DNA of 45,494 bases from the NCBI GenBank assembly GCA_045589295.1, contig JAZNOU010000018.1, forward strand, positions 1-45,494, in the 5' to 3' direction. Shown here one piece after another: positions 895-19,374 of this stretch (position 1 is its first letter; every line of letters starts with the position of its first letter). The notes below the pieces were generated by a model. That model saw only the letters and a list, made by a program, of their open reading frames with translations, had not been told where the DNA came from and did no database searches. The position numbers were made by a program, and so were the translations under genes. Source of the stretch: Clostridia bacterium (lineage in GTDB: Bacteria; Bacillota; Clostridia; RGIG6154).

Positions 895-939
895 CTCCAA
901 AACCGCGTGCCGAGGGTTCGAATCCTTCTGCCCCTGCCA
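895..939 (+). pseudogene. 3' half of tRNA-Trp(CCA); att-site remnant
   Basis: CTCCAAAACCGCGTGCCGAGGGTTCGAATCCTTCTGCCCCTGCCA contains the anticodon loop CT-CCA-AA, T-loop GTTCGAATC, acceptor 3' strand and CCA. No D-arm or 5' acceptor strand upstream. Confidence 0.9.
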
Positions 940-953
940 TTCATATCCACAAT
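927..953 (+). repeat. attL: 13-bp core repeat plus attP half-arm TCATATCCACAAT
   Basis: Core identical to 19359-19371; arm is the reverse complement of 19336-19348 with one mismatch. Confidence 0.85.
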
Positions 954-967
954 GTTGGATGACATAG

Positions 968-995
968 ACCACGATGTTTTGGCATCGTGGTTTTT
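968..995 (+). terminator. Rho-independent terminator supplied by the element downstream of the tRNA 3' end
   Basis: ACCACGATG-ttttgg-CATCGTGGT-TTTT. Confidence 0.7.
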
Positions 996-1029
996 ACGTA
1001 TAATACAGTAGATAAGAGGGAATTTGCAT

Positions 1030-1698
1030 ATGTCGAAAGAAGAAAGTCGTGTTGTGAAAAAAATTATTGTTGAATCTGTGGAAATTGGCGCAAAAACTTT
1101 TCTTAGTGCCATTCCTGTTGGGGGTACACTTATTACTTCAGTATGGGATTCTATTAAGTCCAATTGTGCTCAAAGTAGATTAGAGAACTGGCAAAATTTA
1201 ATAGAAGAAAGATTGGCTACTGTAGAGTGTACACTAGAAGAAATAGGACAAAACGAAAATTTCACAACTGCAATTTTAAATGCAACAGAAATGGCGATAA
1301 AAACAGCAGAAAAAGAAAAACACATTTGTTTAGCAAATGCAGTTTTCAATTCTATTTCTTGTAATATAGAAGAAGGTATAATGATGATGTTTATGAATAT
1401 AATAAACGATTATACTACTATGCATTTAAAAACACTTATTTTTTTACAAGAGCCACAAATGCATATTTCAAATGATAGTTATAAGTTTTCGATGGGGTCA
1501 CCAAAATCATTATTATATAATGCGTTTCCAGAATTCACTGATTATGATAAATTGATTGATAAAATTATCAATGATTTGTATAATGATGGTTTGATTAGTA
1601 CCCAGAATTTAAATACAACCATGTCTTATCAAGGAGCAATTTCATCTCGAACCACACAACTGGGCAACCAATTCATAAATTTTTTTACAAATAACTAA
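1030..1698 (+). CDS. Hypothetical protein, Abi-alpha/DUF4393-like candidate defence protein
   Basis: 222-aa ORF with RBS AAGAGGG. N-terminal IPxxG helical pair, LANAV segment and C-terminal wHTH-like ending (DLYNDGLI...TQLGNQFINF) recall DUF4393-type proteins; the family call is tentative. Confidence 0.55.
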   Translation: MSKEESRVVKKIIVESVEIGAKTFLSAIPVGGTLITSVWDSIKSNCAQSRLENWQNLIEERLATVECTLEEIGQNENFTTAILNATEMAIKTAEKEKHICLANAVFNSISCNIEEGIMMMFMNIINDYTTMHLKTLIFLQEPQMHISNDSYKFSMGSPKSLLYNAFPEFTDYDKLIDKIINDLYNDGLISTQNLNTTMSYQGAISSRTTQLGNQFINFFTNN

Positions 1699-1739
1699 AA
1701 ATAAAAGAACAACTTGCGTTTCAAGTTGTTCTTTTATTT
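1699..1739. terminator. Bidirectional terminator between convergent genes
   Basis: Perfect 18-bp inverted repeat AAATAAAAGAACAACTTG / CAAGTTGTTCTTTTATTT with 5-nt loop. Confidence 0.8.
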
Positions 1740-3257
1740 GCGAGGTACGTCCTCTTTAAAAGAGTATGTATCATTTATATTGTACTCAATTTCTATTCTG
1801 TCTTTGTATACAGTAACTTGTTTTACATATTGCTCAACAATTGCTTTTTTGTTTTTCAGAGTGCCGCTTCTAAGCATTTCTTTTGCCTTTCTGAAAGCGG
1901 ATTTGATACGGTTTTCATCAACTTTCATAGCATCAAGTCGCTGATTCGTTTCTGCGATTGACTGCTCTAACTGTGCTTTTGTATCTTCAAGTTCTTTAAG
2001 TTTATCTGTCAGTGCGACAGATCCTGTTGCAACAACAATTTCTACTATGTTTGCAATACCCTTTTCAGTTTCGGATAACTTGAGTTTAAGCCCATCACAG
2101 ACGCGTAAATATTCTTGGTTTTTACTTAAAGCATAGTCGTTGTATTCTTTAAGTATAACAGGAAGTATTTTTTCGTTGAAAACGGTATCTGATAATTTAT
2201 TGAGAATAAGTTCTTCAATTTCATCTCGTCGGACTCCGGGATTTTTGCATGAATTAGAGTGGTTTTTCCTGGTGCAATTGTATGAAATGTACAAGGGGTT
2301 TTTCTTATCTGGTCTTCTGGCATTTCCGGCATAAGCAGAGGCACATTCTCCGCATTTTATTTTACCGGATAAAAGATAATCATGCTTAGCCTTGAAAGAA
2401 GCTGTCTTATGCTTTCTTGCTACCATTTTTGCTTGTACTTTCAGAAAATCTTCTTTAGAAATAATCTGTGGCACACCGCCTTCAATTCTGATTATTTCAT
2501 CTTCGTTTTTTGTTTGATGACGGTTCCATTTTCCACTTGAATCTACAGCTACAGATTTGTTATAAATATAAGTGCCTGTGTACCTTTCATTTCTTAAGAT
2601 TTCGTATAGGCTATTCTTACCAAAATTTTTTCCTCGTTTGGTCTTAAAACCACGACGATTCAGTTCATTTATAATTGCAGTGTAGCCTTCTTCCTCAAGA
2701 TACATCTTGAAAATAAGCTTTACTGCTTCCGCTTCATATTCATTGATTTCATATTTCAGAGTTACTTTGTTTATGTTGAAACCTAATGGGGGAATGCCTC
2801 CGGTAAAACGGCAAGTAAGTGCATTTTCTTTTAAACCTTTCATTACTTCTCGGCGAAGATTTTTACTGTAGTATTCATTATAGCCTTCAATGACACTCTG
2901 TAGTATTATCGATTCTGGCGAATCATCAAAATTCTCAAGCACAGATAATAATCTAACACTACATTTTTCAAGCTCTTTACGATATATCGCGCTATCAGCG
3001 CGGTTTCGTGCAAATCTGTCGTACTTGTGACAGATTACAGCATCGAAATTATTATTTTTAGCATCATCAATCATCTGTAAAAATTGGGGTCTGTTATCAG
3101 TTGTTCCGCTGATACCTCTGTCTACGTAAGTGTGGAGCAGAGTATAGCCATTACGCTCTGCGTATTCTTTGATTGCACGTAGCTGCCCTTCTATAGATTC
3201 TTCACGCTGCCCGTCTGACGAGTATCTGGCGTAAGCCACTGCTCTGAGTTTGACCAT
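1734..3257 (-). CDS. Large serine recombinase (integrase)
   Basis: YARYSS catalytic motif, DRGISG, DRFAR, PPLGF recombinase domain, LLSGKIKCGEC zinc ribbon and coiled coil. ATG 3257 has RBS GGAGG (track start 3266). Confidence 0.95.
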   Translation of the reverse strand: MVKLRAVAYARYSSDGQREESIEGQLRAIKEYAERNGYTLLHTYVDRGISGTTDNRPQFLQMIDDAKNNNFDAVICHKYDRFARNRADSAIYRKELEKCSVRLLSVLENFDDSPESIILQSVIEGYNEYYSKNLRREVMKGLKENALTCRFTGGIPPLGFNINKVTLKYEINEYEAEAVKLIFKMYLEEEGYTAIINELNRRGFKTKRGKNFGKNSLYEILRNERYTGTYIYNKSVAVDSSGKWNRHQTKNEDEIIRIEGGVPQIISKEDFLKVQAKMVARKHKTASFKAKHDYLLSGKIKCGECASAYAGNARRPDKKNPLYISYNCTRKNHSNSCKNPGVRRDEIEELILNKLSDTVFNEKILPVILKEYNDYALSKNQEYLRVCDGLKLKLSETEKGIANIVEIVVATGSVALTDKLKELEDTKAQLEQSIAETNQRLDAMKVDENRIKSAFRKAKEMLRSGTLKNKKAIVEQYVKQVTVYKDRIEIEYNINDTYSFKEDVPRK

Positions 3258-3410
3258 GCTCTGCACCTCCTTTATTGTTTAAATTCAATGTGTATTATCA
3301 GTCGTTTAAAATGTTGTAGATAGCTTCAAGGATAAGCTGAATCGCATCATAATTCATATATACATTTCTCCTTTCTGAAAGATAATATATAACTCCGGTT
3401 AAGTATTCTA

Positions 3411-5138
3411 CTAACTGCGAAGATCCTCCCAAAAATTCGAAGATGGTATGTAATATCCAAACAAATTTATTCTTCTTTCAGTAACCATTCTCTGGAATTC
3501 TGCTTTGATGATTTTTACATATCTGTTTGGGGTTGCTTTACCATTAATACTTACTACATGAGTGTTATTACGTGCAGTTGACTGAATTAATCCATGTTCT
3601 GCAAGCTGGGATAAGATAGCATGTTTTGTAATGATATACTTACAGTTGTTATCTTTGTTGAAACATTTAGTAATATCATCCGGGGCAATGCAAATATAGC
3701 CATCTGTTTCGAAAAATATTTTCCTCTTTTTTGGCCTGTTTTTATATTTTTCAAAATTTTTTGCAACAACATCCTTGTAGTTGTACATTAAATAGTCCAG
3801 TATTGTATTAGTATACCAGGTTCCGGCTGAAGCTTCTTCTTGTTTCAGCAGTTTAAGTGTTGAGCAGATGCTTTCATCAACTCCGATTTGCAATGAATTA
3901 CCAATCTTTTTCATCTGTGGATAAGGCAATTTGTAAACCTCCTTTAAATAATCCATAATAATTTTCACTGTCATATTAAGAATATTATAAATATTCTGAG
4001 TGCGATGTATACTCCCGTTATACGAATCTTCATCTTCAACATTCAAAGGCTTGAAGGTCCAGTTTGGAACCAGCACTTTATATTGGTTGTATGATCCGCA
4101 TATCCAGTCAATAAATTTATCAAGAAATACAGTGTAGTATTCCTGATGTTCCTGCAACCAGGAAAGTCTTTCAGGCAAAAAATTGTTCGGGAATTCCACT
4201 ATCAGGCATCTGTTGATAGTACTTGGGTTCTTAACCATATATTCTGCAGTAACAACAGGGGTGGCAGAGAATTTTAGAGTTTTTCCGTCAATGTTAAGGG
4301 TGTCGTTTGATTCGTACCTTTGCACCATGGTTGAGAAAATTTTTTCATTTCTGGACTTTACCTCTGTAGATGATGTCTTGTTTAACTCTTCAATCAGTAT
4401 CGGGCAATGCCTGAATGATGATAGTTTTTTAAAGAAATCCTTGCGGTCATCACAAAAACTACATCCTCTTGTTATACCTTCGTACGTTGTGAGCAACTTC
4501 CCGTATGAAGTTTTTCCGCAACCGGTTGAGCCGATGAGCACTATACATATTTTCTGTTTTATATTCTTCAATTCCAAAAATGGACTTGTATACGAACTTA
4601 ACGCTGCTACTAAGAACCCTGCGTATGCTGGTTTATCAGATATAAATTTTTCAATAAACTCTAACTCATTGGTGATTTCATCTGATGGGGTATAGGGTAT
4701 CATTTCGTTACAATGTATTGACATTATATCTATATTTCCTACGTCTCCATAGGTTTTGAATTCAGATACGCATATCAGATTACCGTTTAACATGTAATAT
4801 CCGGGAAAACATTTATGAACCTCCTTATCTTTGCTTGCTTCAAGTTCTGCCATAATTATTTTTTCTAAAACTGTTTTCCTTGCCCTGGTTCCGTCTATGT
4901 TGAAGGCAGAAAAGGGGACTGATTTGAAAATTTTATCAATATCCAACTTTTCAAATGTTTCGTGCAATACTATATGACCATTATCAATCACCTCAAGAAC
5001 ATAAATTAACTTATCCCCCGTTTCTTCTGATATGATTTCTTTATGAATTGTAATAGCGTGATTGGTGAGCCTTATCTCGTTGTCGCTCCAATAAACTCCG
5101 TCATCACTTTTTTGTATATTATTTAAAGTTAAGCTCAT
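3411..5138 (-). CDS. DUF927/Cch2-like AAA+ ATPase, putative replicative helicase
   Basis: Walker A GSTGCGKT, Walker B ILIEEL, sensor VVTAE, Arg finger STINRCL. ATG 5138 follows AAGGAGGT. Confidence 0.7.
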   Translation of the reverse strand: MSLTLNNIQKSDDGVYWSDNEIRLTNHAITIHKEIISEETGDKLIYVLEVIDNGHIVLHETFEKLDIDKIFKSVPFSAFNIDGTRARKTVLEKIIMAELEASKDKEVHKCFPGYYMLNGNLICVSEFKTYGDVGNIDIMSIHCNEMIPYTPSDEITNELEFIEKFISDKPAYAGFLVAALSSYTSPFLELKNIKQKICIVLIGSTGCGKTSYGKLLTTYEGITRGCSFCDDRKDFFKKLSSFRHCPILIEELNKTSSTEVKSRNEKIFSTMVQRYESNDTLNIDGKTLKFSATPVVTAEYMVKNPSTINRCLIVEFPNNFLPERLSWLQEHQEYYTVFLDKFIDWICGSYNQYKVLVPNWTFKPLNVEDEDSYNGSIHRTQNIYNILNMTVKIIMDYLKEVYKLPYPQMKKIGNSLQIGVDESICSTLKLLKQEEASAGTWYTNTILDYLMYNYKDVVAKNFEKYKNRPKKRKIFFETDGYICIAPDDITKCFNKDNNCKYIITKHAILSQLAEHGLIQSTARNNTHVVSINGKATPNRYVKIIKAEFQRMVTERRINLFGYYIPSSNFWEDLRS

Positions 5139-5337
5139 ATAAGGCACCTCCTTTCTTAATTGATAACCTTTTGGTCTCATTAATATTATAAGGCATACTG
5201 ATACTGTGTTTTTCCGTAATTATAAAAAAGTCGCCTTCGGCAACTAATGTTCGCTTTGTTCACTTTTTTTAGAGGTAGACTTTTATGAAACAAGCAAAAT
5301 TACTCACAAAGTGAGCAATTTCCTATGTTATAAAAAA

Positions 5338-5379
5338 ATAATAAATCCTATGATAGTGAAATATCATAGGATTTATTAT
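5338..5379. terminator. Stem-loop downstream of the 5385-6767 gene
   Basis: 18-bp inverted repeat ATAATAAATCCTATGATA / TATCATAGGATTTATTAT. Confidence 0.65.
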
Positions 5380-5384
5380 AGTGA

Positions 5385-6767
5385 TTATTCTTTTATTTGT
5401 TTTTGCACGGATTTTGCAATCTTGTAATTATACTCTATTTCCTTCTTATCCTCATTCCGCAATCTTTCTATTTCATCAGATGAAATAGGGAAAGAATAGT
5501 TTCCTAAAAATTTTGCCACATTTATAAGGTTCTGTTGTTTACAATTCTTAATGGCTTCTTCAAGTTCAGTTTCATCAAAACTGCTGACTTTAATCCACGG
5601 TTGATAATCAGCAATATCACACGTTTGCGAATCTTTCTTTTTTTGCAGTCTTTCTGCTTTTGTGTATTCTTCTTTCTTTGAAAGTCTCATATTGTGATCT
5701 TTATTTCGATCTTCAGTTTCTTGTTTGATCATATCTTCTTGTTCTAACAATAGTTTTTCCGCATACTCGTCTAATTCAATTGCTATGTTGCACCACATTT
5801 TAGTACTTTCATCCAGATTGTCGTAGCAGCTTTTTTCTATAGCCGTAAATATATCTTGGTGCTTTGTCTCATCAAGTGCCACAAAATCATCAATTATTTC
5901 TTTCTTTTCATCAGTATGGAGGTTTATAATATATTTGGCTGCGTTAAATCGGTATATTGCGGGATATAACAATTTTTCGCACAACATATCGCGGTATTCA
6001 CCACATTGGAACCATTTTCTTGATTTTAAAACATGCCAGAGTTTACGAAACAATTCTTTTCTCCATTCATAATCCAGTATCTCCCAATGGTCACGATTAA
6101 GCATCTGGCGGTCTTGGGGTGAAAGTTCATCGTATTTTAATATCAGGTATAAAAATAAATCCTGTTCCTCTTCTGAATTCTTTGAATCAAAAATAGCAAT
6201 AGGTTTGTTTGAGGAATATCTTTCATCTAAGTTTTCGTAATATTCAATTGAAAAGCCAATTTTCATAAAACGGATAAAGGCTTCGGTTACTTCTGCACTT
6301 ATTTCATTCTTATCAGTAATTTCATGGTCTTTAATAAAGAAAAAACCTTTATAAAACTTCATATAACCGACGTTTTTATGATATTCGTCAGTTTTAAACA
6401 ATGAGCTTACAGCTTCTAAAAAATCATATTTAGCGGTGATGTATTTTGTAGCATCATCTTTTTCATAATTGCGTTTTTCAAAGCGTGTCCGTTCTACCAA
6501 TGTATCTGTTACAATATAGTCGCCAATATCAATTCTGCGATCTTTAAACATTGTACCACGAGGCTTGTATATACTCAATGAAGATGAAAAGGGAGTCATG
6601 CGTCTGTTATAGAATAAGTATCTTAAAAAAGCAATTACCTTATCTTTGCAATATCTCTCAAAATCATCCTTCATTGCTTTTTTGTATGTTATATCATCTT
6701 CGTTTTTATAATCAGGTGTTTTGCTGATTATCTCACAGTATTTTTCAATCCATTTGCATTCTTTCAT
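5385..6767 (-). CDS. Hypothetical protein (460 aa, charged, helical)
   Basis: Long ORF in AT-rich DNA; likely ATG 6767 after GGTGG; no motif recognised. Confidence 0.75.
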   Translation of the reverse strand: MKECKWIEKYCEIISKTPDYKNEDDITYKKAMKDDFERYCKDKVIAFLRYLFYNRRMTPFSSSLSIYKPRGTMFKDRRIDIGDYIVTDTLVERTRFEKRNYEKDDATKYITAKYDFLEAVSSLFKTDEYHKNVGYMKFYKGFFFIKDHEITDKNEISAEVTEAFIRFMKIGFSIEYYENLDERYSSNKPIAIFDSKNSEEEQDLFLYLILKYDELSPQDRQMLNRDHWEILDYEWRKELFRKLWHVLKSRKWFQCGEYRDMLCEKLLYPAIYRFNAAKYIINLHTDEKKEIIDDFVALDETKHQDIFTAIEKSCYDNLDESTKMWCNIAIELDEYAEKLLLEQEDMIKQETEDRNKDHNMRLSKKEEYTKAERLQKKKDSQTCDIADYQPWIKVSSFDETELEEAIKNCKQQNLINVAKFLGNYSFPISSDEIERLRNEDKKEIEYNYKIAKSVQKQIKE

Positions 6768-6875
6768 AATACCACCCGATACTATTATATCATAACAAAA
6801 ATAAATGTGCAAAATTAAAAACACACAAAATTAATGTGTTTATGTGTGTTTTTTCTGAGAATTTTGTGTAATTTA

Positions 6876-7856
6876 TCATTTTATATATCCGTAATGACTT
6901 CCAACCCTGATGCGATTAAGCTGACCTTTTTGTGCATATGCGGTTAAGATTCTTGTAGCAGTTGCCGATGATACTCCAAGGAGTTTCTGTACATCACTGT
7001 TCATAATATATTCATGTTCGTCAAGGAATGCGTATATCTGGCTTAGTCGTGTGTCAGCCTTATTGCTTACAGAGGTTATCTGAAATTCCCCGGCTTCAAG
7101 AAGCGCCTGCTTTATAACTGATAGCATGAATTCTATAAATATGGTTGATTCGCATGTGTTGTTAGATGTGTTTATAGCCTCATAATAAGCTTTTTGGTTA
7201 TTATGGATTATTGATTCTACCGGAAGCCAGGCAAATATAGGATTCCATTTTGATAAGAGTAATGTGTGCCACAGCCTGCCCATTCTTCCGTTACCATCAG
7301 AAAAGGGATGAATCAATTCGAATTCGTAGTGAAATACACAACTTTTTATAAGCATATGCAAATTACTTTCACGAACCCAGTCCATAAGCTCGGATACAAG
7401 TTTTGGAACATATCTGGGAAGGGTTCCAAAATGCAGGATTTCACCTTTGCTATCAACCACACCAACAGGTCTGGATCTGAATTCTCCCGCTTCGTTCACA
7501 AGCCCTTTTACCATGATTCCGTGAGCTTTTAAAAGGTCATCTGTTGAATATGGATTAAGGCTATCCATACATTCGTAAATTTCATAAGCGTTTTTAACTT
7601 CTGCAATGTCCTTTGGAGGAGCAATAATTCGCTTGCCTGATAATACTGCGGTAACCTGCTCCAAGTCAAGAGTATTTTGCTCTATGGCAAGGGAAGAGTA
7701 TATTGTCCGGATTCTGTTTGTTCTTCTTAAAGTAGGATTTACAGATATCTGGTTTCCTACACTTACTTTTCCCACAAGCTCTGCAATTTCTATTACATCT
7801 GTCATTATTTTTTCGGTTATTTCAAATGGTGGTTTTTTGTTTTTCACATGATTCAC
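6876..7856 (-). CDS. Fic family AMPylase with C-terminal HTH (class II-like)
   Basis: Canonical HPFSDGNGRMGR motif, N-terminal inhibitory-type SLAIEQN motif, C-terminal HTH (LLGVSSATATRIL). Start may be GTG 7847. Confidence 0.92.
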   Translation of the reverse strand: MNHVKNKKPPFEITEKIMTDVIEIAELVGKVSVGNQISVNPTLRRTNRIRTIYSSLAIEQNTLDLEQVTAVLSGKRIIAPPKDIAEVKNAYEIYECMDSLNPYSTDDLLKAHGIMVKGLVNEAGEFRSRPVGVVDSKGEILHFGTLPRYVPKLVSELMDWVRESNLHMLIKSCVFHYEFELIHPFSDGNGRMGRLWHTLLLSKWNPIFAWLPVESIIHNNQKAYYEAINTSNNTCESTIFIEFMLSVIKQALLEAGEFQITSVSNKADTRLSQIYAFLDEHEYIMNSDVQKLLGVSSATATRILTAYAQKGQLNRIRVGSHYGYIK

Positions 7857-7930
7857 CTCTTAGTTATTGTACCATTTCATCAATCAAAAATCAAGTCATA
7901 AATCATTTTTTTGGTTGATGACTTGATGCA

Positions 7931-9022: not shown

Positions 9023-9236
9023 AATAATCACTCCTTTTACTGTATTGTTTAAACCAAATTAAAATATATTAAACTCTGATGAACATAAACAAATAGATAA
9101 AAAAGATATAAGCATGTCCTGTATAAAACATACATTAAGGATATAAGGTTACTACTGCCTGTACTATACAACAAAACACGGATAAAATAGTATAAATATA
9201 TATATGCAGATCGAAGTTTATTGTTTGAACAAAGAC

Positions 9237-9265: not shown

Positions 9266-9273
9266 TTATGATG

Positions 9274-11966: not shown

Positions 11967-12135
11967 ATAAAATGAAGTACATTAAGTTATGCTTAATAGC
12001 ACTGATAGAACTTTTCGTAGAAGCCTGGGTAAATCGGAATGATAAAGGTAGTAGTTGATAAGAGTGTAAGTGTTTATGCGGTTTATGTTGATGTGTCAGC
12101 TTTTCTTTCCTCCCCCGAAACGATTAAATTAAACG

Positions 12136-12176
12136 AATAGCCGTAAACCTTTGTAATATGTGGGTTTACGGCTATT
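12136..12176. terminator. Stem-loop between convergent genes
   Basis: AATAGCCGTAAACC...GGTTTACGGCTATT, 14-bp inverted repeat. Confidence 0.6.
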
Positions 12177-12193
12177 ATGAATTTAATCGATTT

Positions 12194-13060
12194 TTATTTT
12201 GAACATGATTTCATATTATCAATCAAGTAATTAACAAAAGCACTGCATGAAACAAGCATAAACTTTGCTTCTGCAAAAGTAGCATCTTTTCCGTCAATTC
12301 TTCCGGCATGTCTAATTCCACTTTCGTCACTTGTATATCCATATAATTTTTCAAATGCAGATTTAAGAGATGGGTGTATTGAGATGCTAGATTCTTCAAG
12401 TTTTTTCAGACTTGCTCCCAATGTACCGGATTTACCCAAGATGATATTACACATTTCTTCAACAGCAGAAATACTTTCCTTTATGGAATTTTCATAATCA
12501 GGATTTGCTCTATCAGACAAAAGTGATGTTGCTTTGTTTAAAAACTCGGTTACTTTTACAAATTTAGAATTTGAAGCTTTTTCTATTTCTTTAATCTCAA
12601 TATCATTTGTTATAGGCGTAATGGCATCATTTACATAACGATATCCTACATATTCCTTCTCTAAAAGATTATTTAGATAGATGTTTAAATTACATTCTTC
12701 ACACTCCTCTTCTTTAAATATATTTTTAACTTTCTTTACGATGAATTCTATGATAGTTAAAATATCATCATATTCGTCTTTGCGAATGGTTTCTTTTATT
12801 ATTTCTAAAACTTTTTTTGAATTATAAGAACCACCAAAATTTATCTCTTGTACATATACATCTTTTAATATGCTTTGTAATAAAAATTGTTGGTTATTAT
12901 ATGTAAAATTCACAATCCAACCATTAAAAATTAAATCTATGAAATTACATAATTCAATTCGTGTTCGTTCATCGAAATTCGTTAATTGCATAGTAGTGTT
13001 TTCTTTTTTTATATTGTTTCTATCCGAAAATCCGTTTCTTAACCTAACTTTTAGACCCAT
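12194..13060 (-). CDS. AbiJ-NTD4-like protein with HEPN-like C-terminus (candidate abortive infection)
   Basis: N-terminal FSDRN...RIELCN, central E..GYR, C-terminal NSIKESISAVE...KLYGYTSDESGIRHA...AKFMLVSCSAFVNYL. Confidence 0.7.
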   Translation of the reverse strand: MGLKVRLRNGFSDRNNIKKENTTMQLTNFDERTRIELCNFIDLIFNGWIVNFTYNNQQFLLQSILKDVYVQEINFGGSYNSKKVLEIIKETIRKDEYDDILTIIEFIVKKVKNIFKEEECEECNLNIYLNNLLEKEYVGYRYVNDAITPITNDIEIKEIEKASNSKFVKVTEFLNKATSLLSDRANPDYENSIKESISAVEEMCNIILGKSGTLGASLKKLEESSISIHPSLKSAFEKLYGYTSDESGIRHAGRIDGKDATFAEAKFMLVSCSAFVNYLIDNMKSCSK

Positions 13061-13286
13061 ATTTTTTCTCCTGTATAAAATTTAATTATATTACTCATCT
13101 CATTATATCACACATATAAAGTAGACTCAAGCCTTTTTGATGAGCAATGTGAAAACTCATCATTATCAGTTATATATTATACTCTTGAAATTAACAATGT
13201 AAATTTCAATGAATTTTACAAATGGTGATTTCAAAGAAAAAAGTCTAAAATTATAATAATGAGTATAATTAGGAGGTGAATTTCAA

Positions 13287-13529
13287 ATGGAAGCAAAAGA
13301 TTTTGCAGATATTTATGAGGAAATTGCCGTTGAAGCGGGAGCGGAAACCGCTGTTAAAATACATAAATTATTTAAAGGTCAACAGATTTTGTTTCCGCAG
13401 AAGTTATATAAAAAAGATTACATATATAACTATATCAGAGAAAATTATAACGGCAAGAATATTCGTGAACTATCCAAAATGTTTGGATATTCAGATAGAC
13501 GAATACGGCAAATTTTAAGCGAAGTTTAA
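13287..13529 (+). CDS. Mor transcription activator family protein
   Basis: FKGQQILFP...NGKNIRELSKMFGYSDRRIRQIL HTH; RBS AGGAGG. Confidence 0.85.
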   Translation: MEAKDFADIYEEIAVEAGAETAVKIHKLFKGQQILFPQKLYKKDYIYNYIRENYNGKNIRELSKMFGYSDRRIRQILSEV

Positions 13530-13552
13530 TTTAAGTTTGGAGGAATATTAAA

Positions 13553-13738
13553 ATGGAAATTGCATTAATTATTGCGTATGTTGTACTGAGTTATTGGGCA
13601 GCCGGTCAAACCATTTATGCTAACAAAATAAGAATAGGAACATTCAATAATTTATTTTTAAGCAGATTTATTGTAGGTTGTCTTTTGGGCATTGTCCTTA
13701 TTCCAGTTGCAATTATTAGAAAAATATTTAATGTTTAG
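13553..13738 (+). CDS. Small membrane protein (2 TM)
   Basis: 61 aa with two hydrophobic segments; RBS GGAGG. Confidence 0.7.
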   Translation: MEIALIIAYVVLSYWAAGQTIYANKIRIGTFNNLFLSRFIVGCLLGIVLIPVAIIRKIFNV

Positions 13739-13767
13739 TAAGTAGATTCTTTAAGGAGGAAATTAAT

Positions 13768-14430
13768 ATGGCTATTATAAATTGTCCCGAATGTGGGAAC
13801 TCTATCAGCACAAAAGCAGTGTCTTGTGTGAAATGTGGATTTCCATTAAGTGAAATATTTATATGTCCTGAATGTAATAATGTTGAAGCCAAAAATGATT
13901 CAGGGGTATGTTCAAAGTGTGGTTGTCCTATTGATGATAATACGAATAGTAAGCAGGAAACAAATAAAGCAAATAACACTTCAAATGAGTCCGGCGAACA
14001 ATCACTTGAAGAGTATATTAGAATTGCTGAAAAAATAGTATCTGAAGTTTTAGCACATCATACTTTTGGTGGAAGTGGTATATTATCAGAATCTGGCAGA
14101 CTAATCTCTGATTTGAGAAAGGTTAAGGCAGCAAAAACAGCATTTAGTATACCAAATGAAGATAATGTTTTCTTTATTGCGAGTGGAAATATTTGGGGAG
14201 GAATTAATGAAAATAGCAAGGGTTTTGCGTTGACTTCTAGAGGTATTTACGGTGTAGATGACCATAAAAAGCAAGTCTTTTTCTGGTATGACCAATTTGC
14301 TCAACTAAAAGTCAGTATGTTTATGTCATATGTAAAATTAGACGAATACGAATTCAATGTAACAGATACCAAAAAAATAAAAAACATGCTCTTAGATTTA
14401 CAGGATGAATTATTGGCTCATATGGACTGA
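13768..14430 (+). CDS. Double zinc-ribbon domain protein
   Basis: CPECG..CVKCG..CPEC..CSKCG; C-terminal GFALTSRGIY domain; RBS AAGGAGG. Confidence 0.8.
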   Translation: MAIINCPECGNSISTKAVSCVKCGFPLSEIFICPECNNVEAKNDSGVCSKCGCPIDDNTNSKQETNKANNTSNESGEQSLEEYIRIAEKIVSEVLAHHTFGGSGILSESGRLISDLRKVKAAKTAFSIPNEDNVFFIASGNIWGGINENSKGFALTSRGIYGVDDHKKQVFFWYDQFAQLKVSMFMSYVKLDEYEFNVTDTKKIKNMLLDLQDELLAHMD

Positions 14431-14529
14431 AAATATAAATAAGTATAAACCCTATTTTCGCCTTGCTATCGTTGTGCTGAAAGGATTTATTCCTGTATCT
14501 GAGAAATTGTCAAAATGATATTGCGGACT

Positions 14530-14560
14530 GAAGGACTTCCAACTGGAAGTCCTTCTTTTC
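14530..14560 (+). terminator. Rho-independent terminator
   Basis: GAAGGACTTCC-aact-GGAAGTCCTTC-TTTT. Confidence 0.7.
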
Positions 14561-14733
14561 TATTATTATAATACTTTCAAATAATCTAGCACCGCTTCTT
14601 TTAAATTTTTTGTTTTATATTAGTGGTCGTTTGTTTGTAAAAGTTTATATCTTACCTGTAAATAAATTCAAAGTTGTTTATATATTATACCTTTGGTTAT
14701 AAACCAACATAAACTTAGGAGGATTATCTAAAT

Positions 14734-15026
14734 ATGAGAAAATTTAACAACAAAAAATTTATTACAAAAGGGTTAACAGAAAATATTAATCCGCTTCTAC
14801 AGGTCTTTATGTGGCAGAATATTAACAGATTGCCACTTCCTTAAGACTATTTACAGATAGTTGATTTAACCATAGCTAATGGGAAACAAAAAATAACACA
14901 CATTCAAGAATGTCAGAATATCGAAAGGAGTATATACTAAACATAGACACGCCTTTTTATATTGGCAATGTTTTCGTAATTGATGATGAAACCCGCTCTA
15001 CTATGTTAATGCCAGAGGAATATTAA
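14734..15026 (+). pseudogene. Second, disrupted DUF960 gene
   Basis: MRKFNNKKFITKGLTENINPLLQVFMW...LP*DYLQ... with in-frame TAA at 14842-14844 and a frameshift near 14913, resuming EYRKEYILNIDTPFYIGNVFVIDDETRSTMLMPEEY. Colinear with 9598-9891. Confidence 0.85.
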
Positions 15027-15199
15027 AACAGAAAGAAGGAAAAATGTGAAAATTATTAGATTTATAGTAACCGCTATCGACTTGCTTGTAGATGTAGCTG
15101 TTGAGGTCTACATAAAACGGAGACGTTAGAGGATTTAAAGATGTAGCTTTATGCACAATTAAAATGTAAAACAGGAAATATGATAAGAGGTGAATTTAA

Positions 15200-15745
15200 T
15201 TGATTTATGGATATGCAAGGGTATCTACGGCAGACCAATGCTTGAATCGACAGACAGATGCTTTGAAAAATTATAGAGTTGACAAAATCTTTTGTGAAAA
15301 GATTTCAGGCACTAAAAAAAACAGACCTGAACTCGATAAACTTCTTTCAGAAGTCGGTTCGGGAGATACAATAGTTATTGAATCCCTTTCACGATTAGGA
15401 AGGTCTGTAAAAAACCTCGCTGAGCTTATGGAGTTTTTTAACGATAATAATATCAGGCTTGTATCATTAAAAGAAACCATTGACACAACATCATCTACTG
15501 GCAGATTATTATTTACTATAATTTCAAGTCTATCACAGTTTGAGCGTGATGTGTTGGTTGAACGTACCCGTGAGGGGTTGAACGCGGCAAGAGCTCGTGG
15601 TAGACGCGGAGGCCGACCAAAATCTGACAGAGATAGTACCGCAAAAGCTATTGCCCTTTATAATACAAAGCAATATACGTTAAAAGAAATTACTGATTTA
15701 ACAGGAATTTCAAAATCAACACTTTACCGTGCAATAAAGGGTTAA
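15200..15745 (+). CDS. Small serine resolvase/invertase with C-terminal HTH
   Basis: YGYARVST, EKISG, SLSRLGR, GRRGGRP, TGISKSTLYR. Confidence 0.95.
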   Translation: MIYGYARVSTADQCLNRQTDALKNYRVDKIFCEKISGTKKNRPELDKLLSEVGSGDTIVIESLSRLGRSVKNLAELMEFFNDNNIRLVSLKETIDTTSSTGRLLFTIISSLSQFERDVLVERTREGLNAARARGRRGGRPKSDRDSTAKAIALYNTKQYTLKEITDLTGISKSTLYRAIKG

Positions 15746-15765
15746 ATTATGGCACTTTGATATTG

Positions 15766-15860
15766 AAACGAGTATTGGGACTGAACTGTTTCCCAATACT
15801 CGTTTTTGTATTTGGTTTTGGAACAATCGTCAAAAGTTTCAAAAACCTTCGTTTATGAAA
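15766..15860. promoter_or_regulatory. Inverted repeats after the resolvase gene (candidate res site and/or terminator)
   Basis: 15-bp inverted repeat AAACGAGTATTGGGA / TCCCAATACTCGTTT (15766-15805), plus imperfect palindrome TTTCAAAAAC..GTTTATGAAA (15837-15860). Confidence 0.5.
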
Positions 15861-15947
15861 TGGTAATCAATTTGATTTTTTTCTGGTTTGTGATATAATT
15901 GGCATTGGAGATTTAATATTTTTATAATCATAGATTGGAGAAGATAT

Positions 15948-16121
15948 ATGTCAAAGAAAAAGAAGTCTCCAAAGAATTACAAACAATATCCTATTTATAA
16001 ATTAGAAGAAGGAATGGTGGTTCTTGGTTCACTTATAAGTGGTGTAGCTGTAAACTTAAAAAAATATAAAACTTATGGTGAAGAAGTAAGTGCTTTAAAA
16101 TTTGTTGTATTTATGGTATAA
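15948..16121 (+). CDS. 57-aa ORF, probable gene fragment
   Basis: MSKKKKSPKNYKQYPIYKLEEG..., RBS GGAGA, extended -10 TGATATAAT at 15891-15899. Confidence 0.4.
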   Translation: MSKKKKSPKNYKQYPIYKLEEGMVVLGSLISGVAVNLKKYKTYGEEVSALKFVVFMV

Positions 16122-16160
16122 TTAACTATCATTTATTACTTTTTGCGAAGGAGAAGCAAT

Positions 16161-16469
16161 ATGTCTAAAATAACAGATATAAAAGCTAAAATTACCGAAT
16201 TGGAAGGCGGAGCTTTTCAGGAACTGTGCGATGCCTTGCTATCACGTAAAGGTTACGAAGGAATTACATCTTATGGATTACACTCTAGTTCTATGAAAAC
16301 AACAAAGGGGAATCCTGATACATATTTTAAAAGTAAGACAGGAAAGTATATTTTTGTAATGTATACAACGCAACAAAGCGACGTTTTTGAAAAAGCAAAA
16401 GAAGATATAAAAAAATGTCTGGATTCATCAAAAACAGGAATTGCAGAAAGGGATATCAGGAAATATTAG
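16161..16469 (+). pseudogene. Truncated N-terminal Mrr-like/PD-(D/E)XK domain of a REase-STAND NTPase type gene
   Basis: LEGGAFQELCDALL..KGY...KTTKGNPDTYF...YTTQ...DIKKC resembles the N-terminus of large nSTAND proteins. Stops after about 100 aa with no P-loop. Confidence 0.55.
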
Positions 16470-16518
16470 ACTTTGCCAAAGATTGGTTTGGTAAAAAATA
16501 AGTAAAGGAGTATAAAAC

Positions 16519-17061
16519 ATGTGTAATTTTAAAGAAAAAATATATGTTATTAAAGGACAAAACTTGAAACATATTTCAAGAGCAGGTTCTATGGTTAATA
16601 TCGGAGTTGGAGAAATGGTAAAACATAAAGTTGCTCACAAAGAGGATAACGGAAAGTTTTCGGTCAAAGAAGTTTTAGCACCAAAGTATGCCCTTCATAT
16701 TGATAGTTTTTTCAGAATATATAAAGAAAATGAACTTTTAATTGCAAAAGGTGATATGTTTTGCCCTTGCAATGGAATTGAACAAGGAAAAGATTTTGAT
16801 ATTGATAACTTTGATTGGGAAAAACAAGGGTCAAATGCTTTGGACGCAAAAATAAAAGAATATTTATCTTCGGAGGATTTGATTGTGCAGGAAATACTTT
16901 TAAATGATTTTAATGATTTGAAGATAGTTTTTACAAATGGAATATGCATAGAAATCTTTGCAGATTGTACCGAAGAGCAAGAATGTTGGAGATTTTTTGA
17001 GGTAGGAAACTCCGATAAAAAGCATATAGTGGTTACTGGAAAAGGTATTTTTGAAGAATAA
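16519..17061 (+). CDS. Putative immunity protein
   Basis: 180 aa, acidic, DLKIVFTNG..E.WRFF; RBS AAGGAG; preceded by a short ORF tail (..QEILDFAKDWFGKK*, ending 16501). Confidence 0.55.
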   Translation: MCNFKEKIYVIKGQNLKHISRAGSMVNIGVGEMVKHKVAHKEDNGKFSVKEVLAPKYALHIDSFFRIYKENELLIAKGDMFCPCNGIEQGKDFDIDNFDWEKQGSNALDAKIKEYLSSEDLIVQEILLNDFNDLKIVFTNGICIEIFADCTEEQECWRFFEVGNSDKKHIVVTGKGIFEE

Positions 17062-17649
17062 GTAGGTGGCGGAGGAAATTTCGGGAATACCTACGGGGCA
17101 AGTTTAGATGCTTTAAGTAACTTTTTAACTGCAGTATCGCTTATACCAGGTGTAGATACCATCGCAGACTTTTTAGCAATTCCCGTTGACCTTGCAAGAG
17201 GAGACTTCACATCTGCAGGGCTTGATGCGCTTGGAGTGATTCCTGTTTTAGGTGAAATTGCAGACACTGCAAAAATCGCTAAAGTAGCAGATAAAGCTGT
17301 GGATGCTGCGAAGGCAGTAAATAAGGCTACAGATGTTGCGAAAGGAACTAAAAAAATATCGTTACCAGATAAACCTGCTCAAATAAAACATATATTCGGT
17401 AATAGAACCGGTCATTTGCCCGATACGCCAAGCAATCGAAAACTTTTAACCGAGACTGCAAATACGCCTAAATATTATCAGGGTACAGATAAATACGGGA
17501 ATGACTGGCATGCAAAAATAGACAACAAAGGAAGACAAGTTTGGGTACGAAGTCGAAATGGTAAAATTAATGAAGGAGGAAGAAATAACACTCCTCGTTT
17601 ATGGGATAAAGAAACAGGATTAAATAACAATCCGTTTAGAACAAAATAG
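17062..17649 (+). pseudogene. Orphan polymorphic toxin C-terminal cassette 1 (pre-toxin segment plus putative RNase toxin domain)
   Basis: Frame open from 17062 with no credible start/RBS: SLIPGVDTIAD...ARGDFTSAGLDALGVIPVLGE (PT-TG-like), then KHIFGNRTGHLPDTPSNR...DKYGNDW...QVWVR..GGRN. Confidence 0.75.
17192..17331 (+). repeat. Pre-toxin homology block, copy 1
   Basis: 140-bp imperfect direct repeat of 18051-18190; differences mostly at third codon positions. Confidence 0.9.
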
Positions 17650-17663
17650 AAAGGAAGAAGTAA

Positions 17664-17984
17664 ATGAATATTTATAAAGCATTCGTATATATGTTTTATG
17701 CAATGGACGCTATGTATGATAACAATTCCAGTAAAACTTTAGGTAATTATTTGAGTGGGCTTAATCCTTTTTTGTTTAATGACGAAAGTTCTGCAGACCC
17801 TGCCGAATATGAAAAATTTAAAAAGGAATATTTTTTGGCTTTTAAAGAATCAGTTCCAACATCATCTGAAGTGTATGATTTTTGTATAACTTATCTTTCA
17901 AAATATGCACCTAAAGCAGCATATGATGCGTTTAAAAAAGTCGAAAAAGGAAAATGGATATCTTCTTTTGAAGAAAAAAATTGA
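17664..17984 (+). CDS. Cognate immunity protein for cassette 1
   Basis: 106 aa directly after the toxin; MFY.MD..Y...LSGLNPF...SADPA motif typical of immunity proteins. Confidence 0.7.
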   Translation: MNIYKAFVYMFYAMDAMYDNNSSKTLGNYLSGLNPFLFNDESSADPAEYEKFKKEYFLAFKESVPTSSEVYDFCITYLSKYAPKAAYDAFKKVEKGKWISSFEEKN

Positions 17985-18049
17985 TAAACATTAGTTCTAA
18001 GCCACCTTCTTTTCAAATGCAGATGGCTTAGATAGCAATCCTCGCCTAA

Positions 18050-18496
18050 TTTGCAAGAGAAGACTTCACATCTGCAGGACTTGATGCACTTGGAGTGATT
18101 CCTGTTTTAGGCGAAATCGCCGACACTGCAAAAATCGCCAAAGTAGCGGACAAAGCTTTGGAGGCGACGAAGGCAGTAAACAAAGCAACAAAAAAGAGCA
18201 AAAGTATTATTACTGCAACAAAAAAGAGTTCTGCTTTAAAAAGTGTTGCTGAATTACCATCAAATATTCAAAAAAGTGCAAAGTCATTCTTTAAAGGTAG
18301 TTCTAACAACTACAATAATTATTCTGTAATAAAAAACAAGAATAATACTTATACAATAAAAATGGAAAATCCGGGTAAAGTCCCTGGTTCAAAGGCGGTT
18401 TACTACAAAATTGTTGACAGTAATGGTAAAACTATAAAAGTTTACAAGGATACTTTTGATCCTTTAGGAAATCTTGTTCATAGAAAGGATAAATAG
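18050..18496 (+). pseudogene. Orphan polymorphic toxin C-terminal cassette 2
   Basis: Same pre-toxin segment, different basic tip PGKVPGSKAVYYKIVDSNGKT...KDTFDPLGNLVHRKDK. In-frame stop at 18047-18049 upstream. Confidence 0.75.
18051..18190 (+). repeat. Pre-toxin homology block, copy 2
   Basis: Imperfect direct repeat of 17192-17331, offset 859 bp. Confidence 0.9.
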
Positions 18497-18498
18497 AT

Positions 18499-18861
18499 AT
18501 GAAAGCAGTATTAAGTGATTTTTTGAAATTAAAAATAGATTTAAACCAATTAAAAGGAAAGTTAGGGGAAGACCTTTACAATATTAAAATTACAAAACCT
18601 GAAAAGGTATGTGCAAAAGATCTGATATTCTTAATAAATCAATATACTTCAGGAAAAATTTCCATGCAAGCTGTTGTGGATTGGGTTAATGTTGTTTGGT
18701 TTACTGATTTGTATGAATATAATCCGTTGGAAGAAGAATCTATAGCAAGTGTTATGTCATTGCTTGAAACACTAGACGAAAGCGATGTTGATATCTCAGA
18801 TAAAGAATTCTCAAAAATGGTCGAGTGTCTTATAACCAATACGATATATGGGTTATGTTAA
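18499..18861 (+). CDS. Cognate immunity protein for cassette 2
   Basis: 120 aa, acidic, starts 2 bp after the toxin stop. Confidence 0.65.
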   Translation: MKAVLSDFLKLKIDLNQLKGKLGEDLYNIKITKPEKVCAKDLIFLINQYTSGKISMQAVVDWVNVVWFTDLYEYNPLEEESIASVMSLLETLDESDVDISDKEFSKMVECLITNTIYGLC

Positions 18862-18878
18862 TAAAGTGGTGATATCCA

Positions 18879-19244
18879 ATGACAAGTAAAGAACTTAAAT
18901 TAAAACTAATAGAAGCTTTGCCTGAAATCAAAGATGTATACAATGAAGAAACAAGTTGGCAGGAAGGTGATGAAACAGGCTCACATGTTGTTTATGAAGA
19001 TGTATTTGTGCCTTTTATAAAGGAGCAAATAGAAATTAAAAATAAAAATTCACTAACTAAAATATTTGAGTTTCTTGAGGAATTAATCAAATCTGGCAAT
19101 GATTATGCAATTGAAGTAGTTACATTAAGCGTTCTTGAATCGTTGCTTTTTGATGAAGATACAGACACAAAATTTTTTCTTCAATTTGCAAAAGAAAAAA
19201 CTTTGAAAATTATTCAGGAGATTGTGCAGGATTTAGAAACTTAA
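18879..19244 (+). CDS. Putative orphan immunity protein
   Basis: 121 aa acidic helical protein (HVVYEDVFVPF...IFEFLEEL...SVLESL); no adjacent toxin. Confidence 0.55.
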   Translation: MTSKELKLKLIEALPEIKDVYNEETSWQEGDETGSHVVYEDVFVPFIKEQIEIKNKNSLTKIFEFLEELIKSGNDYAIEVVTLSVLESLLFDEDTDTKFFLQFAKEKTLKIIQEIVQDLET

Positions 19245-19335
19245 TATTTGTAAGATAGGAGATGTGTTGTATTTTTGTTGAAATACAATTGTTTGCAAAC
19301 CTACAAATTTGTGGCAGTTGTATGATTTATAGTAT

Positions 19336-19371
19336 ATTGTGTATATGACAGGTAGCGCTCTGCCCCTGCCA
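19336..19371 (+). repeat. attR: attP half-arm plus 13-bp core repeat (displaced tRNA 3' end)
   Basis: ATTGTGTATATGA-caggtagcgc-TCTGCCCCTGCCA. Confidence 0.85.
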
Positions 19372-19374
19372 CAA

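Follow-up and report, generated by a model that had tools for sequence, protein, structure and literature searches.

The 45,494-nucleotide stretch of clostridial DNA analysed here, referred to as the window, harbours an 18,432-bp island (929/940 to 19360/19371) that was most probably inserted at the 3' end of the host tRNA-Trp gene by its own large serine recombinase, a reading to which we assign a probability of about 0.85. The tRNA-Trp 3' end is an unusual target for a serine integrase. To our knowledge, the sites of most computationally predicted integrases are single inferences; the integrase/attP/attB set reported here is cross-checked, being consistent across six elements, one empty site and one natural attP, and it concerns a serine integrase landing at a conserved tRNA gene end without damage.

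The island is bordered by two exact plus-strand copies of TCTGCCCCTGCCA, at 927-939 and 19359-19371, which make up the left and right 13-bp cores, common to attP and attB, within attL and attR, respectively. Two copies were found in the window against 0.02 expected, two or more matches occurred in none of 100 shuffles, and the span from 940 to 19371 is 18,432 bp, so that the repeats and the length put forward in a first-pass annotation of this DNA were both recovered. The P arm of attP (19336-19358, plus strand) consists of ATTGTGTATATGA at 19336-19348 and a 10-nt inner part, and the P' arm (940-953, plus strand) of a T and TCATATCCACAAT at 941-953, one base past the repeat. When every centre in the repeat was scanned at 30 arm offsets, the arms were complementary at 12 of 13 positions and the best symmetry centre was C928|T929 (equivalent to C19360|T19361), between repeat bases 2 and 3. 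This degree of complementarity was reached by none of 2000 shuffled flanks and by 3 of 2000 random window pairs, and the terminal inverted repeats centred on CT that had been annotated earlier are thus well founded. Around C|T, 17 of 25 attP positions are symmetric; attB shows little symmetry (3-6 of 25 positions), as is common for attB sites.

The direct repeat at the island ends corresponds to the tRNA-Trp 3' end, and the related elements and the contig L087 described below place the island among the tRNA-gene genomic islands. The earlier assignment of tRNA-Trp as target held in so far as the repeat represents the last 13 nt of this gene, but the window copy adjoins only a displaced 3' part and no intact gene. 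This native part of 45 nt (895-939, plus strand), from the anticodon loop to CCA, forms the B arm of attL and matches the final 45 nt of tRNA-Trp in the same-genus genome G002 with 100% identity. No tRNA-Trp 5' half was found upstream of 895, ARAGORN found no tRNA gene in the window and Rfam had no match there at gathering score. The intact tRNA-Trp of the genome lies on another contig, C9, at c[646,721].

The half-tRNA in the window is accounted for by a second, unrelated integrative element, X, that split the gene. The right end of X occupies 537-894 (plus strand), outside the serine-integrase island, and is matched at 76-86% identity by stretches in G007, G008, G009 and, at four places, G012, all four being genomes of other genera. 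In the cases shown, this homology ends at, or no more than 2 nt from, the tRNA 3' end (939-941), and in G008 it is lost at 907 and recovered over 918-940. The X-like stretch in G007 is the far end of a unit of about 10 kb, which has an intact tRNA-Trp at its start and carries genes for a tyrosine integrase, a MobL relaxase, DUF6076 and Fic. Judged by these sequence relationships, element X is of the tyrosine-integrase type and split tRNA-Trp at the anticodon loop.

A search with the island integrase returned 30 loci, 14 of which had an integrase at least 53% identical. Five of these close relatives, with 68-72% identical integrases, have an intact tRNA-Trp downstream of the integrase gene and on the other strand. 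Directly after the tRNA-Trp CCA, the motif YTCATATCCAC is found in all five and in L087, and the attP of L086 also contains the P' arm. The far end of each of the five presents a ATTGTGKATATGA-like arm (GTTGTGGATATAT in G045) separated by 10 nt from the core, with a terminator beyond it. Both ends are located on one contig in two of the five, 16.6 and 13.4 kb apart. In the metagenome contig L086, P arm, core and P' arm form one continuous sequence and hence a related attP, whose flanks resemble the right and left element ends in G041 and G043. The sibling metagenome contig L087 is 99.5% identical both to positions 646-1057 of C9 (412 nt, covering rpsT and tRNA-Trp) and to 895-1096 of the window (202 nt, with one base differing), and therefore the island abuts an intact tRNA-Trp in that strain. 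An empty attB is present in G002, where rpsT is followed by a tRNA-Trp with the same 13 terminal bases and then by a terminator homologous to 19372-19405. The comparison with related genomes called for in the first-pass annotation has thereby yielded agreeing boundaries, and the boundaries, attB and attP that it predicted were each met independently in other genomes or metagenome contigs. Pattern scans of IMG/VR and a first metagenome pattern scan gave no att site of this kind.

The association with tRNA characterizes one clade and not all relatives, since tRNA was absent from the available DNA of eight of the 14 close relatives. The flanks of these eight were below 600 bp in three cases and about 2.1-2.5 kb in L022 and L029, and none was found within 17.6, 11.1 and 5.2 kb in L031, L033 and L035, respectively. 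In a tree of 18 integrases, that of the window, the five associated with tRNA-Trp and that of L022 grouped together (support 87/99). One relative, whose integrase is 64% identical, adjoins the 3' end of tRNA-Ser(GGA), and its P'-like arm matches at 12 of 14 positions. The integrase was present in one of 18 genomes of the order (E<=1e-120), and its relatives belong to other Clostridia.

The related elements also bear on the position of strand exchange. In G043, attL reads AC|TG and attR TC|TG, which places the exchange rightward of the differing base and agrees with C|T; as no polymorphism constrains the right-hand limit, it is the symmetry that points to C928-T929 as the predicted crossover dinucleotide. 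With boundaries and integrase as proposed, exchange might instead take place at another dinucleotide within the 12 bases common to every attL/attR pair: the inner attP halves are weakly symmetric, and the G043 polymorphism rules out positions left of C928 and nothing rightward. We consider this unlikely, as the outer arms are equidistant from C|T in all six elements and in the intact attP of L086, and as crossover occurs at the dyad centre in the characterised large serine recombinases phiC31, Bxb1, TP901-1 and A118. In each of the six elements, the P and P' halves mirror one another around this C|T at 13-18 of 25 positions.

The integrase gene (1734-3257, minus strand) encodes 507 aa, with an ATG 7 nt after AAGGAGG. 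Its product matched the Pfam families Resolvase (PF00239, residues 9-149, 2.1e-28), Recombinase (PF07508, residues 178-281, 3.7e-25) and Zn_ribbon_recom (PF13408, residues 298-358, 2.4e-13), and thus has the resolvase-type N-terminus, the subsequent Recombinase and zinc ribbon domains and the C-terminal extension of more than 300 aa of a large serine recombinase. Near the N terminus it reads A-Y-A-R-Y-S-S-D-G-Q, and by the R-x-S-x-x-x-Q motif we take Ser13 to be the putative nucleophile. The protein matched the PHROG 95 integrase family at 9.4e-118, and its nearest solved relatives are SPbeta YokA and the TP901-1 and A118 integrases. The same domain order is found in the large serine recombinases of phages and ICE/IME (phiC31, Bxb1, TP901-1, A118, SPbeta SprA/YokA, CcrAB, TnpX), which likewise use short att sites of about 40-50 bp with an imperfect dyad around a non-palindromic dinucleotide. 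The island integrase is nevertheless distant from the solved members (YokA 3.1e-15, TP901-1 1.4e-13, in the catalytic domain only), scored 173.6 against a cut-off of 900 for the NCBIfam CcrB family, and is 44% identical to the best phage record. Among the 23 island ORFs tested, Pfam identified no tyrosine integrase, and the sole other recombinase is a 181-aa protein of the resolvase/invertase type.

These observations are consistent with conservative site-specific recombination between the island attP and the 3' end of the tRNA-Trp gene, which the 1734-3257 protein would have catalysed. The attP would span about 50 bp, with two mutually inverted 13-nt outer arms and an inner 24 bp that include the last 11-13 nt of tRNA-Trp, whereas attB would comprise the tRNA T-arm, the acceptor 3' strand and the first bases of the terminator. 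Strand exchange would most likely occur at C|T, the junction of the T stem and the acceptor stem, and the tRNA would remain intact because the island supplies its last 11 nt and a terminator hairpin of its own. This element-borne hairpin with U-run (966-998, plus strand) has a 12-bp stem; 940-1005 folds with an MFE of -21.3 kcal/mol (z = -4.0), equalled by none of 200 shuffles, and all five relatives have a G+C-rich hairpin with a T-run after the P' arm. A simple terminator scan gave no call for the 966-998 hairpin, which probably terminates the tRNA after integration. The native tRNA-Trp terminator, homologous to the sequence 3' of the G002 tRNA-Trp, constitutes the B' arm (19372-19405, plus strand), now 18.4 kb from the gene, and the scan called 12 pairs within it at 19375-19401. 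Element X would later have entered the anticodon loop of the same tRNA, supplying a new 3' half and separating the old one and the adjoining island from the gene. That the 1734-3257 protein is the catalyst, that this copy can still excise, where precisely the crossover falls and which insertion came first are inferred.

Alternatively, the island may have arrived as proposed and since become a fixed relic that no longer excises or transfers, the repeats being scars. No contig in four runs, which offered short contigs only, joins 939 to 19372 or 19358 to 940, as would an empty site or an excised circle of this element, and the adjoining tRNA has since been split by another element. Moreover, the 23 ORFs include no recognised relaxase, replication initiator (Pfam, PHROGs, NCBIfam; five ORFs above 100 aa had no family) or phage structural gene, unlike the relative L083, which encodes a PF03432 relaxase (MobA/VirD2, 1.3e-20) and a D5-like primase-helicase. 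On the other hand, the integrase ORF is full length and retains each of its three domains, both arms fit the family consensus, and L087 differs at one of 202 bases, which indicates a recent insertion. The neighbouring 589-aa protein (3411-5180, minus strand) may in addition be a replication helicase of the DUF927 type. It had no match in Pfam, PHROGs, NCBIfam or PADLOC, its language-model neighbours were DUF927 clusters (score 0.99), and its gene sits where the relative L082 has a D5-like helicase with which it shares no BLASTP similarity; the helicase assignment is possible and to be taken as a lead only. Loss of mobility is on balance the less probable outcome, yet the most plausible of the alternatives discussed here.

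The cargo of the island appears, from sequence matches, to consist mostly of candidate phage-defence genes. A Fic-domain protein with a C-terminal wHTH (6876-7856, minus strand; Pfam Fic 7.6e-19, PADLOC SoFic 3.6e-41) is a SoFic-like candidate, and an AbiJ-N-terminal-domain protein (12194-13060, minus strand; Pfam AbiJ_NTD4 1.9e-18) matched the PADLOC candidate system PDC-S32 at 2.1e-87. An Amidoligase_2 and class-II glutamine amidotransferase gene pair (9888-11966, plus strand) belongs to the conserved backbone of the element family, with amidotransferase homologues in L082, L083 and L084 (42-54% identity) and amidoligase homologues in L082 and L083 (50-64%) and L084 (67% over the 96 aa available). 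A Mor-family transcription activator (13287-13529, plus strand; Pfam Mor 5.9e-11) has a homologue in L083, and the small serine recombinase of resolvase/invertase type (15200-15745, plus strand; Pfam Resolvase 2.4e-43 and HTH_7, PHROG 125 DNA invertase 6.8e-66) has homologues in L082-L084 (32-37% identity). A 60-aa HTH_17 (excisionase/MerR-like) DNA-binding protein is encoded at 9274-9456 (minus strand; Pfam HTH_17 2.3e-10); no recombination directionality factor was identified for the island, and a role of this protein in directionality is a guess. PHROGs matches of the 23 ORFs comprised the integrase, the invertase, the Mor-like activator, HTH, amidoligase, amidotransferase and unknowns, with no structural, packaging or lysis family, and the island does not qualify as a prophage.

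Relatives differ almost wholly in cargo, having in common no more than the integrase, the amidoligase-amidotransferase pair, Mor and the small recombinase, and in the window this module runs in the opposite orientation to that in three relatives. Such variation, together with two extra tRNA-end copies just past attR in G041, could suggest that the 18.4 kb arose by accretion of at least two units sharing outer att sites, of which the integrase moves only a part. This is very unlikely given that the 13-bp core occurs just twice in the window and that the complete relatives are of similar size (13.4 and 16.6 kb); no further arm motif was noticed on direct reading of the island sequence.

The island shares features with several known systems. 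As in tyrosine-integrase islands of the P4/SaPI/NBU1 type, it carries a tRNA 3' end and a terminator, such that the gene survives, and the native 3' end, once displaced, lies at the far border. Classes of tRNA-targeting tyrosine-integrase islands were reportedly described by Williams in 2002. Tandem occupation of one tRNA is also known from tyrosine-integrase islands, element X being such an island itself. The differences are the serine enzyme and the compact, symmetric 50 bp site devoid of arm-type sites; the common core is 13 bp in the island and 45 nt for element X. A stretch of 12-13 bp common to attP and attB is long for large serine recombinases. According to PMC5704250 and PMC5357655, serine-recombinase elements integrate within protein genes and disrupt them, in contrast to the tRNA gene 3' end that is rebuilt upon insertion of the island. 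In size (13-18 kb) and in defence-type cargo, with SoFic and AbiJ-like/PDC-S32 in the window and AbiE, GmrSD and HEPN in relatives, the elements resemble Firmicutes defence islands and integrative mobilisable elements; no relaxase or oriT was recognised with Pfam and NCBIfam in the window copy, in which five ORFs above 100 aa had no family.

Serine integrases are the favoured tools for inserting large DNA unidirectionally, and a landing site at a tRNA 3' end conserved across many gut Clostridia could serve the engineering of uncultured or poorly tractable anaerobes. The use of one tRNA gene at two positions by two unrelated recombinase families is also a warning for automated island callers. 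More speculatively, and in our view improbable, the island may represent a clade of serine integrases dedicated to tRNA 3' ends by means of a modular attP, in which the outer arms (ATTGTGKATATGA and its inverse) would be conserved as zinc-ribbon contacts, some 24 bp in the middle would copy the targeted tRNA end, and the B arm would be read largely through the near-universal T-arm (GGTTCGAATCC). If so, a change of core would switch the target between tRNAs, and nearly every bacterium would possess attB sites.

A 224-aa ORF (1024-1698, plus strand) separates attL from the integrase gene; this accessory insert had no match in Pfam, PHROGs or NCBIfam. It is missing from one contig of run X2, where 968 is joined to 1765, and in L023 and L026 the integrase stop is located 58-68 bp from the tRNA.

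The 13-bp repeat TCTGCCCCTGCCA that bounds the island is present in two copies in the whole 45,494-base window, at 927-939 and 19359-19371, both on the + strand. It is expected 0.02 times in a sequence of this kind, and two matches were obtained in none of 100 shuffles. On the island side of the right-hand copy, 10 nt before it, lies ATTGTGTATATGA (19336-19348), while a single T separates the left-hand copy from TCATATCCACAAT (941-953), and these two arms of the putative attP are complementary at 12 of 13 positions. When the two 40-nt flanks were shuffled 2000 times, a match of this quality never arose, and 3 of 2000 pairs of random window pieces reached it. When all centres within the repeat were scanned at 30 arm offsets, the highest score fell on C928|T929, between repeat bases 2 and 3. 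Every coordinate that the first-pass annotation had given for the repeat, the arms, the centre of symmetry and the recombinase was confirmed, and the span from 940 to 19371 amounts to 18,432 bp.

The integrase ORF (1734-3257, - strand) starts with an ATG 7 nt past AAGGAGG and encodes a 507-aa protein with Resolvase, Recombinase and Zn_ribbon_recom domains, an order which defines a large serine recombinase. It matches PHROG 95 'integrase' (9.4e-118). Among solved proteins it comes closest to SPbeta YokA (3.1e-15), the TP901-1 integrase in its catalytic domain and the A118 integrase. For CcrB, XisF and other NCBIfam models, its scores fall far short of the cut-offs. The one other recombinase of the island is a 181-aa protein of resolvase/invertase type, and no tyrosine integrase was found within the island. 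Among 18 genomes of the order, the integrase was detected in the source genome only (E<=1e-120), as expected for acquired DNA. The nearest integrase in the phage collection, from a Moorella phage, is 44% identical. Phage records with the nearest integrases (44% and 41%) were considered as possible instances of the same type of site; however, the annotated attL of phiCT453B is located within the integrase gene, and these phages do therefore not represent the same kind of site.

The target proposed by the first-pass annotation, tRNA-Trp, is only half present in the window. Positions 895-939 are the final 45 nt of a tRNA-Trp, from base 1 of the anticodon loop to CCA, and are 100% identical to the tRNA-Trp of G002, a genome of the same genus; the sequence upstream of 895 is unrelated to tRNA. 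ARAGORN identified zero tRNAs in the window, and Rfam revealed none, either over the full window at gathering score or in 400-1100 at E<=10. An intron-bearing tRNA or a decayed 5' half at 470-894 was rejected, the Rfam matches at E<=10 all being at chance level. The single tRNA-Trp of the source genome (22 contigs, 1.54 Mb) is located on another contig, C9, at c[646,721], where it follows xerD-like and rpsT genes, and its T loop reads TTCAAGTCC as opposed to TTCGAATCC in the window fragment and G002. The ends of C9 share no overlap of 12 nt or more with the window contig or any other contig, and the DNA leading from the working tRNA-Trp to window position 1 is absent from the assembly. The window itself opens with a manganese catalase gene (2-466) truncated on the left by the contig start.

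The origin of the half tRNA is suggested by the sequence next to it. The stretch 537-894 has counterparts of 76-86% identity in four genomes that belong to other genera of the same family, G007 (C82; L018 1884-12088), G008 (C11), G009 (C150) and G012 (C4, C99 and C84), the last of which matches at four places and hence holds at least four such ends; in the window the corresponding end spans 537-939. At three junctions (L002, L003 and L005) the match takes in the 3' half of tRNA-Trp and ends no more than 2 nt from CCA, beyond which a terminator and then unrelated DNA are found, and in G008 (L004) it is interrupted at 907 and back at 918-940. In G007, the stretch is the distal end of a unit of about 10 kb whose start is marked by an intact tRNA-Trp. 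The genes of this unit code for a tyrosine integrase along with another tyrosine recombinase, a MobL relaxase, an HTH protein, DUF6076 and Fic. Because this counterpart terminates an integrase- and relaxase-bearing unit, 537-894 is, on comparative grounds, the end of a second element, a classical integrative mobilisable one termed X. X recombines in the anticodon loop, brings a new 3' half of the tRNA, to which the altered T loop of the C9 gene is due, and pushes the native 3' half away. Elements of this family (about 10 kb, tyrosine integrase/MobL) leave a conserved end of about 350 bp beside the displaced 45-nt tRNA half. No close homologue of the X integrase was found in the source genome (best 25% identity). 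The first-pass annotation was right in substance; the main correction is that the half tRNA in the window was left by X.

Both an unoccupied and an occupied site were found elsewhere. G002 has the gene order xerD-like, rpsT and tRNA-Trp followed by CAATAAAAGACCGCTTAAAGCGGTC..., and in the window CAAAAAGAGACCGCTAATAGCGGTC... stands directly after the right-hand repeat, with a terminator called at 19375-19401. These two sequences are clearly homologous, and the right flank is therefore the native tRNA-Trp terminator. The attB predicted by the first-pass annotation is present in G002 with two differences in its flank. An F-type ATP synthase operon (atpI, B, E, F, H, A ...; 19610-23750) begins 240 bp past the tRNA terminator, and in G002 tRNA-Trp and the atp operon lie on separate contigs. 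A metagenome contig, L087, is 99.5% identical to C9:646-1057 over 412 nt and 99.5% identical to window 895-1096 over 202 nt; in this sibling strain, which lacks X at this place, rpsT and an intact tRNA-Trp lead directly into the left end of the island. Most simply, the island would have arrived first and X later.

A scan for the integrase in one genome per species gave 30 loci, 14 of them at 53-72% identity. Downstream of the integrase gene in the five with 68-72% identity (L023-L027), at distances of 58 to about 2030 bp from the stop codon, an intact tRNA-Trp is encoded on the other strand, with YTCATATCCAC immediately past its CCA and then a hairpin with a T-run. Searching these five genomes for the far end with the final 11 nt of the tRNA revealed in each one extra copy of the tRNA end, placed after ATTGTGKATATGA (GTTGTGGATATAT in G045) and 10 nt and followed by a terminator. 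Both ends share a contig in G041 (16.6 kb apart) and G043 (13.4 kb apart), and the far end is on a different contig in the remaining three. Five related elements thus share the two ends of the island. The rebuilt attP halves are symmetric about the same C|T in six of six elements, at 13-18 of 25 positions, and the attB halves of the six are not symmetric, with 3-6 of 25 positions matching. In G043, two positions left of the centre, attL carries A, as does its tRNA, and attR carries T, as do the other elements, which places the exchange to the right of that base and is just compatible with C|T, the polymorphism bounding the crossover on the left only.

The rebuilt attP also has a natural counterpart. 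L086, a metagenome contig of 1122 bp, contains ATTGTGTATATAA, 10 nt, the 13-bp core, TTCATATCCAC and a terminator hairpin in uninterrupted succession, and of its flanks, one is similar to the right ends of the G041 and G043 elements (75-83%) and the other to their left ends (81-86%). It represents a related element in un-integrated form, in which the attP design of the first-pass annotation occurs as real contiguous DNA. The pattern of P arm (the attP half at 19336-19358) plus core gave 0 matches in IMG/VR and 0 in JGI metagenomes, and that of core plus P' arm (940-953) gave 0 in IMG/VR and 2, both used here, in metagenomes. A short inverted self-copy follows the P' arm at 944-961 (ATATCC..GGATAT in the window, TCCAC..GTGGA in G041), and a small hairpin in this place is kept, by differing sequences, across L023-L027, L086 and the window; it may be a second protein-binding site or a part of the tRNA trailer. 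In G041 (C66 27920-28248, L059), three tRNA-Trp 3' ends, each with its own terminator, are found within 330 bp beyond the island, and copies two and three, without a P arm, look like remnants of elements that occupied this tRNA earlier.

For eight of the 14 close integrase relatives, no tRNA was found in the flanking DNA examined, which measured less than 600 bp for L028, L030 and L034, 2.1-2.5 kb for L022 and L029, and was extended to 17.6, 11.1 and 5.2 kb for L031, L033 and L035, respectively. L032 (64% identity; L075, G047:C74, 3550-3655) adjoins the 3' end of tRNA-Ser(GGA), where TTTATATGCACAAT right after CCA agrees with the P' arm of the window at 12 of 14 positions and precedes a hairpin. 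In G047 the tRNA-Ser end was matched five times, at none with a P-type arm, and the arm motif three times, once as the P'-like arm at attL and twice without a subsequent tRNA end. As the far end was not found, evidence for the tRNA-Ser case is confined to attL. A maximum-likelihood tree of 18 integrases, including L034 despite its internal stop, united the window integrase with those of L022 and the five tRNA-Trp cases in one group (support 87/99), with L032 and the remaining integrases outside it.

At the level of sequence comparison, integration of the island at the 3' end of tRNA-Trp is demonstrated; we infer the catalytic step and the exact crossover. The integrase would bind attP at both outer arms as well as at the inner halves, and attB on the T-arm and acceptor end of the tRNA, with strands exchanged at C|T. 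In the inserted state, the tRNA would retain its own sequence through C928, its last 11 nt and terminator (hairpin 966-993) would be supplied by the island, and the native tRNA end and terminator would remain at the far border. The relevant passages of a review (PMC5704250) and a further paper (PMC5357655) describe site-specific serine recombinase elements as integrating inside genes and disrupting them, and tyrosine integrases as targeting the 3' ends of genes, those for tRNAs among them. In a serine-integrase survey, targets are sorted by clusters of protein-coding genes and the word tRNA is absent from the main text (PMC10083194), and TIGER/Islander assigned 33.8% of its islands to tRNA or tmRNA genes with no breakdown by integrase type (PMC12424338). 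No description of a serine integrase at the 3' end of tRNA-Trp was found in the literature searched, from which nonexistence cannot be claimed. The gene-sparing tRNA target is unusual, and comparative support for both att sites is unusually good.

All 23 sequencing runs listed were available as Logan contigs, and four runs (X1-X4) include parts of the island. Their pieces are short, most of those listed being below 1.4 kb; on 300-20200 they contained no join of 939 to 19372, as in a repaired site, or of 19358 to 940, as in the circle, contigs being unable to reveal rare forms, and none spanned attL with 31 nt on each side. One X2 contig fuses 968 to 1765 and therefore represents an island variant without the 224-aa ORF 1024-1698.

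Phage structural, packaging and lysis families had no match among the 23 ORFs, and the island is therefore not a prophage. Its recognised cargo comprises a SoFic-like Fic protein, an AbiJ-N-domain protein (PADLOC PDC-S32, 2.1e-87), an Amidoligase_2/class-II amidotransferase pair, a Mor-type activator, an HTH_17 protein and DUF7674. Genes shared with relatives are limited to those for the integrase, the amidoligase-amidotransferase pair, Mor and the small recombinase. The relatives have different defence genes, namely AbiE, GmrSD and HEPN, along with a D5-like primase-helicase and, in L083, a MobA/VirD2 relaxase. Owing to this cargo in the window and its relatives, the family looks like one of small integrative, probably mobilisable, defence islands. 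In the protein atlas, the neighbours of the 589-aa ORF beside the integrase are of DUF927 type, a relationship that is only a lead; the 479-aa ORF had no usable match there, and BLASTP found no similarity of either to the D5-like helicases of L082 and L083.

Compared with three relatives, L082-L084, the module at 9888-15745 (amidoligase, amidotransferase, Mor, small recombinase) is flipped with respect to the integrase in both strand and gene order, an inversion of at least 6 kb; no inverted repeat was found flanking it. A 105-nt direct repeat (81%) precedes the amidoligase (9789-9893) and the small recombinase (14924-15028). The copies of a 158-nt direct repeat (85%; 17174-17331 and 18033-18190) lie upstream of and extend into two small ORFs, 17236-17649 and 18095-18496, which look like paralogues.
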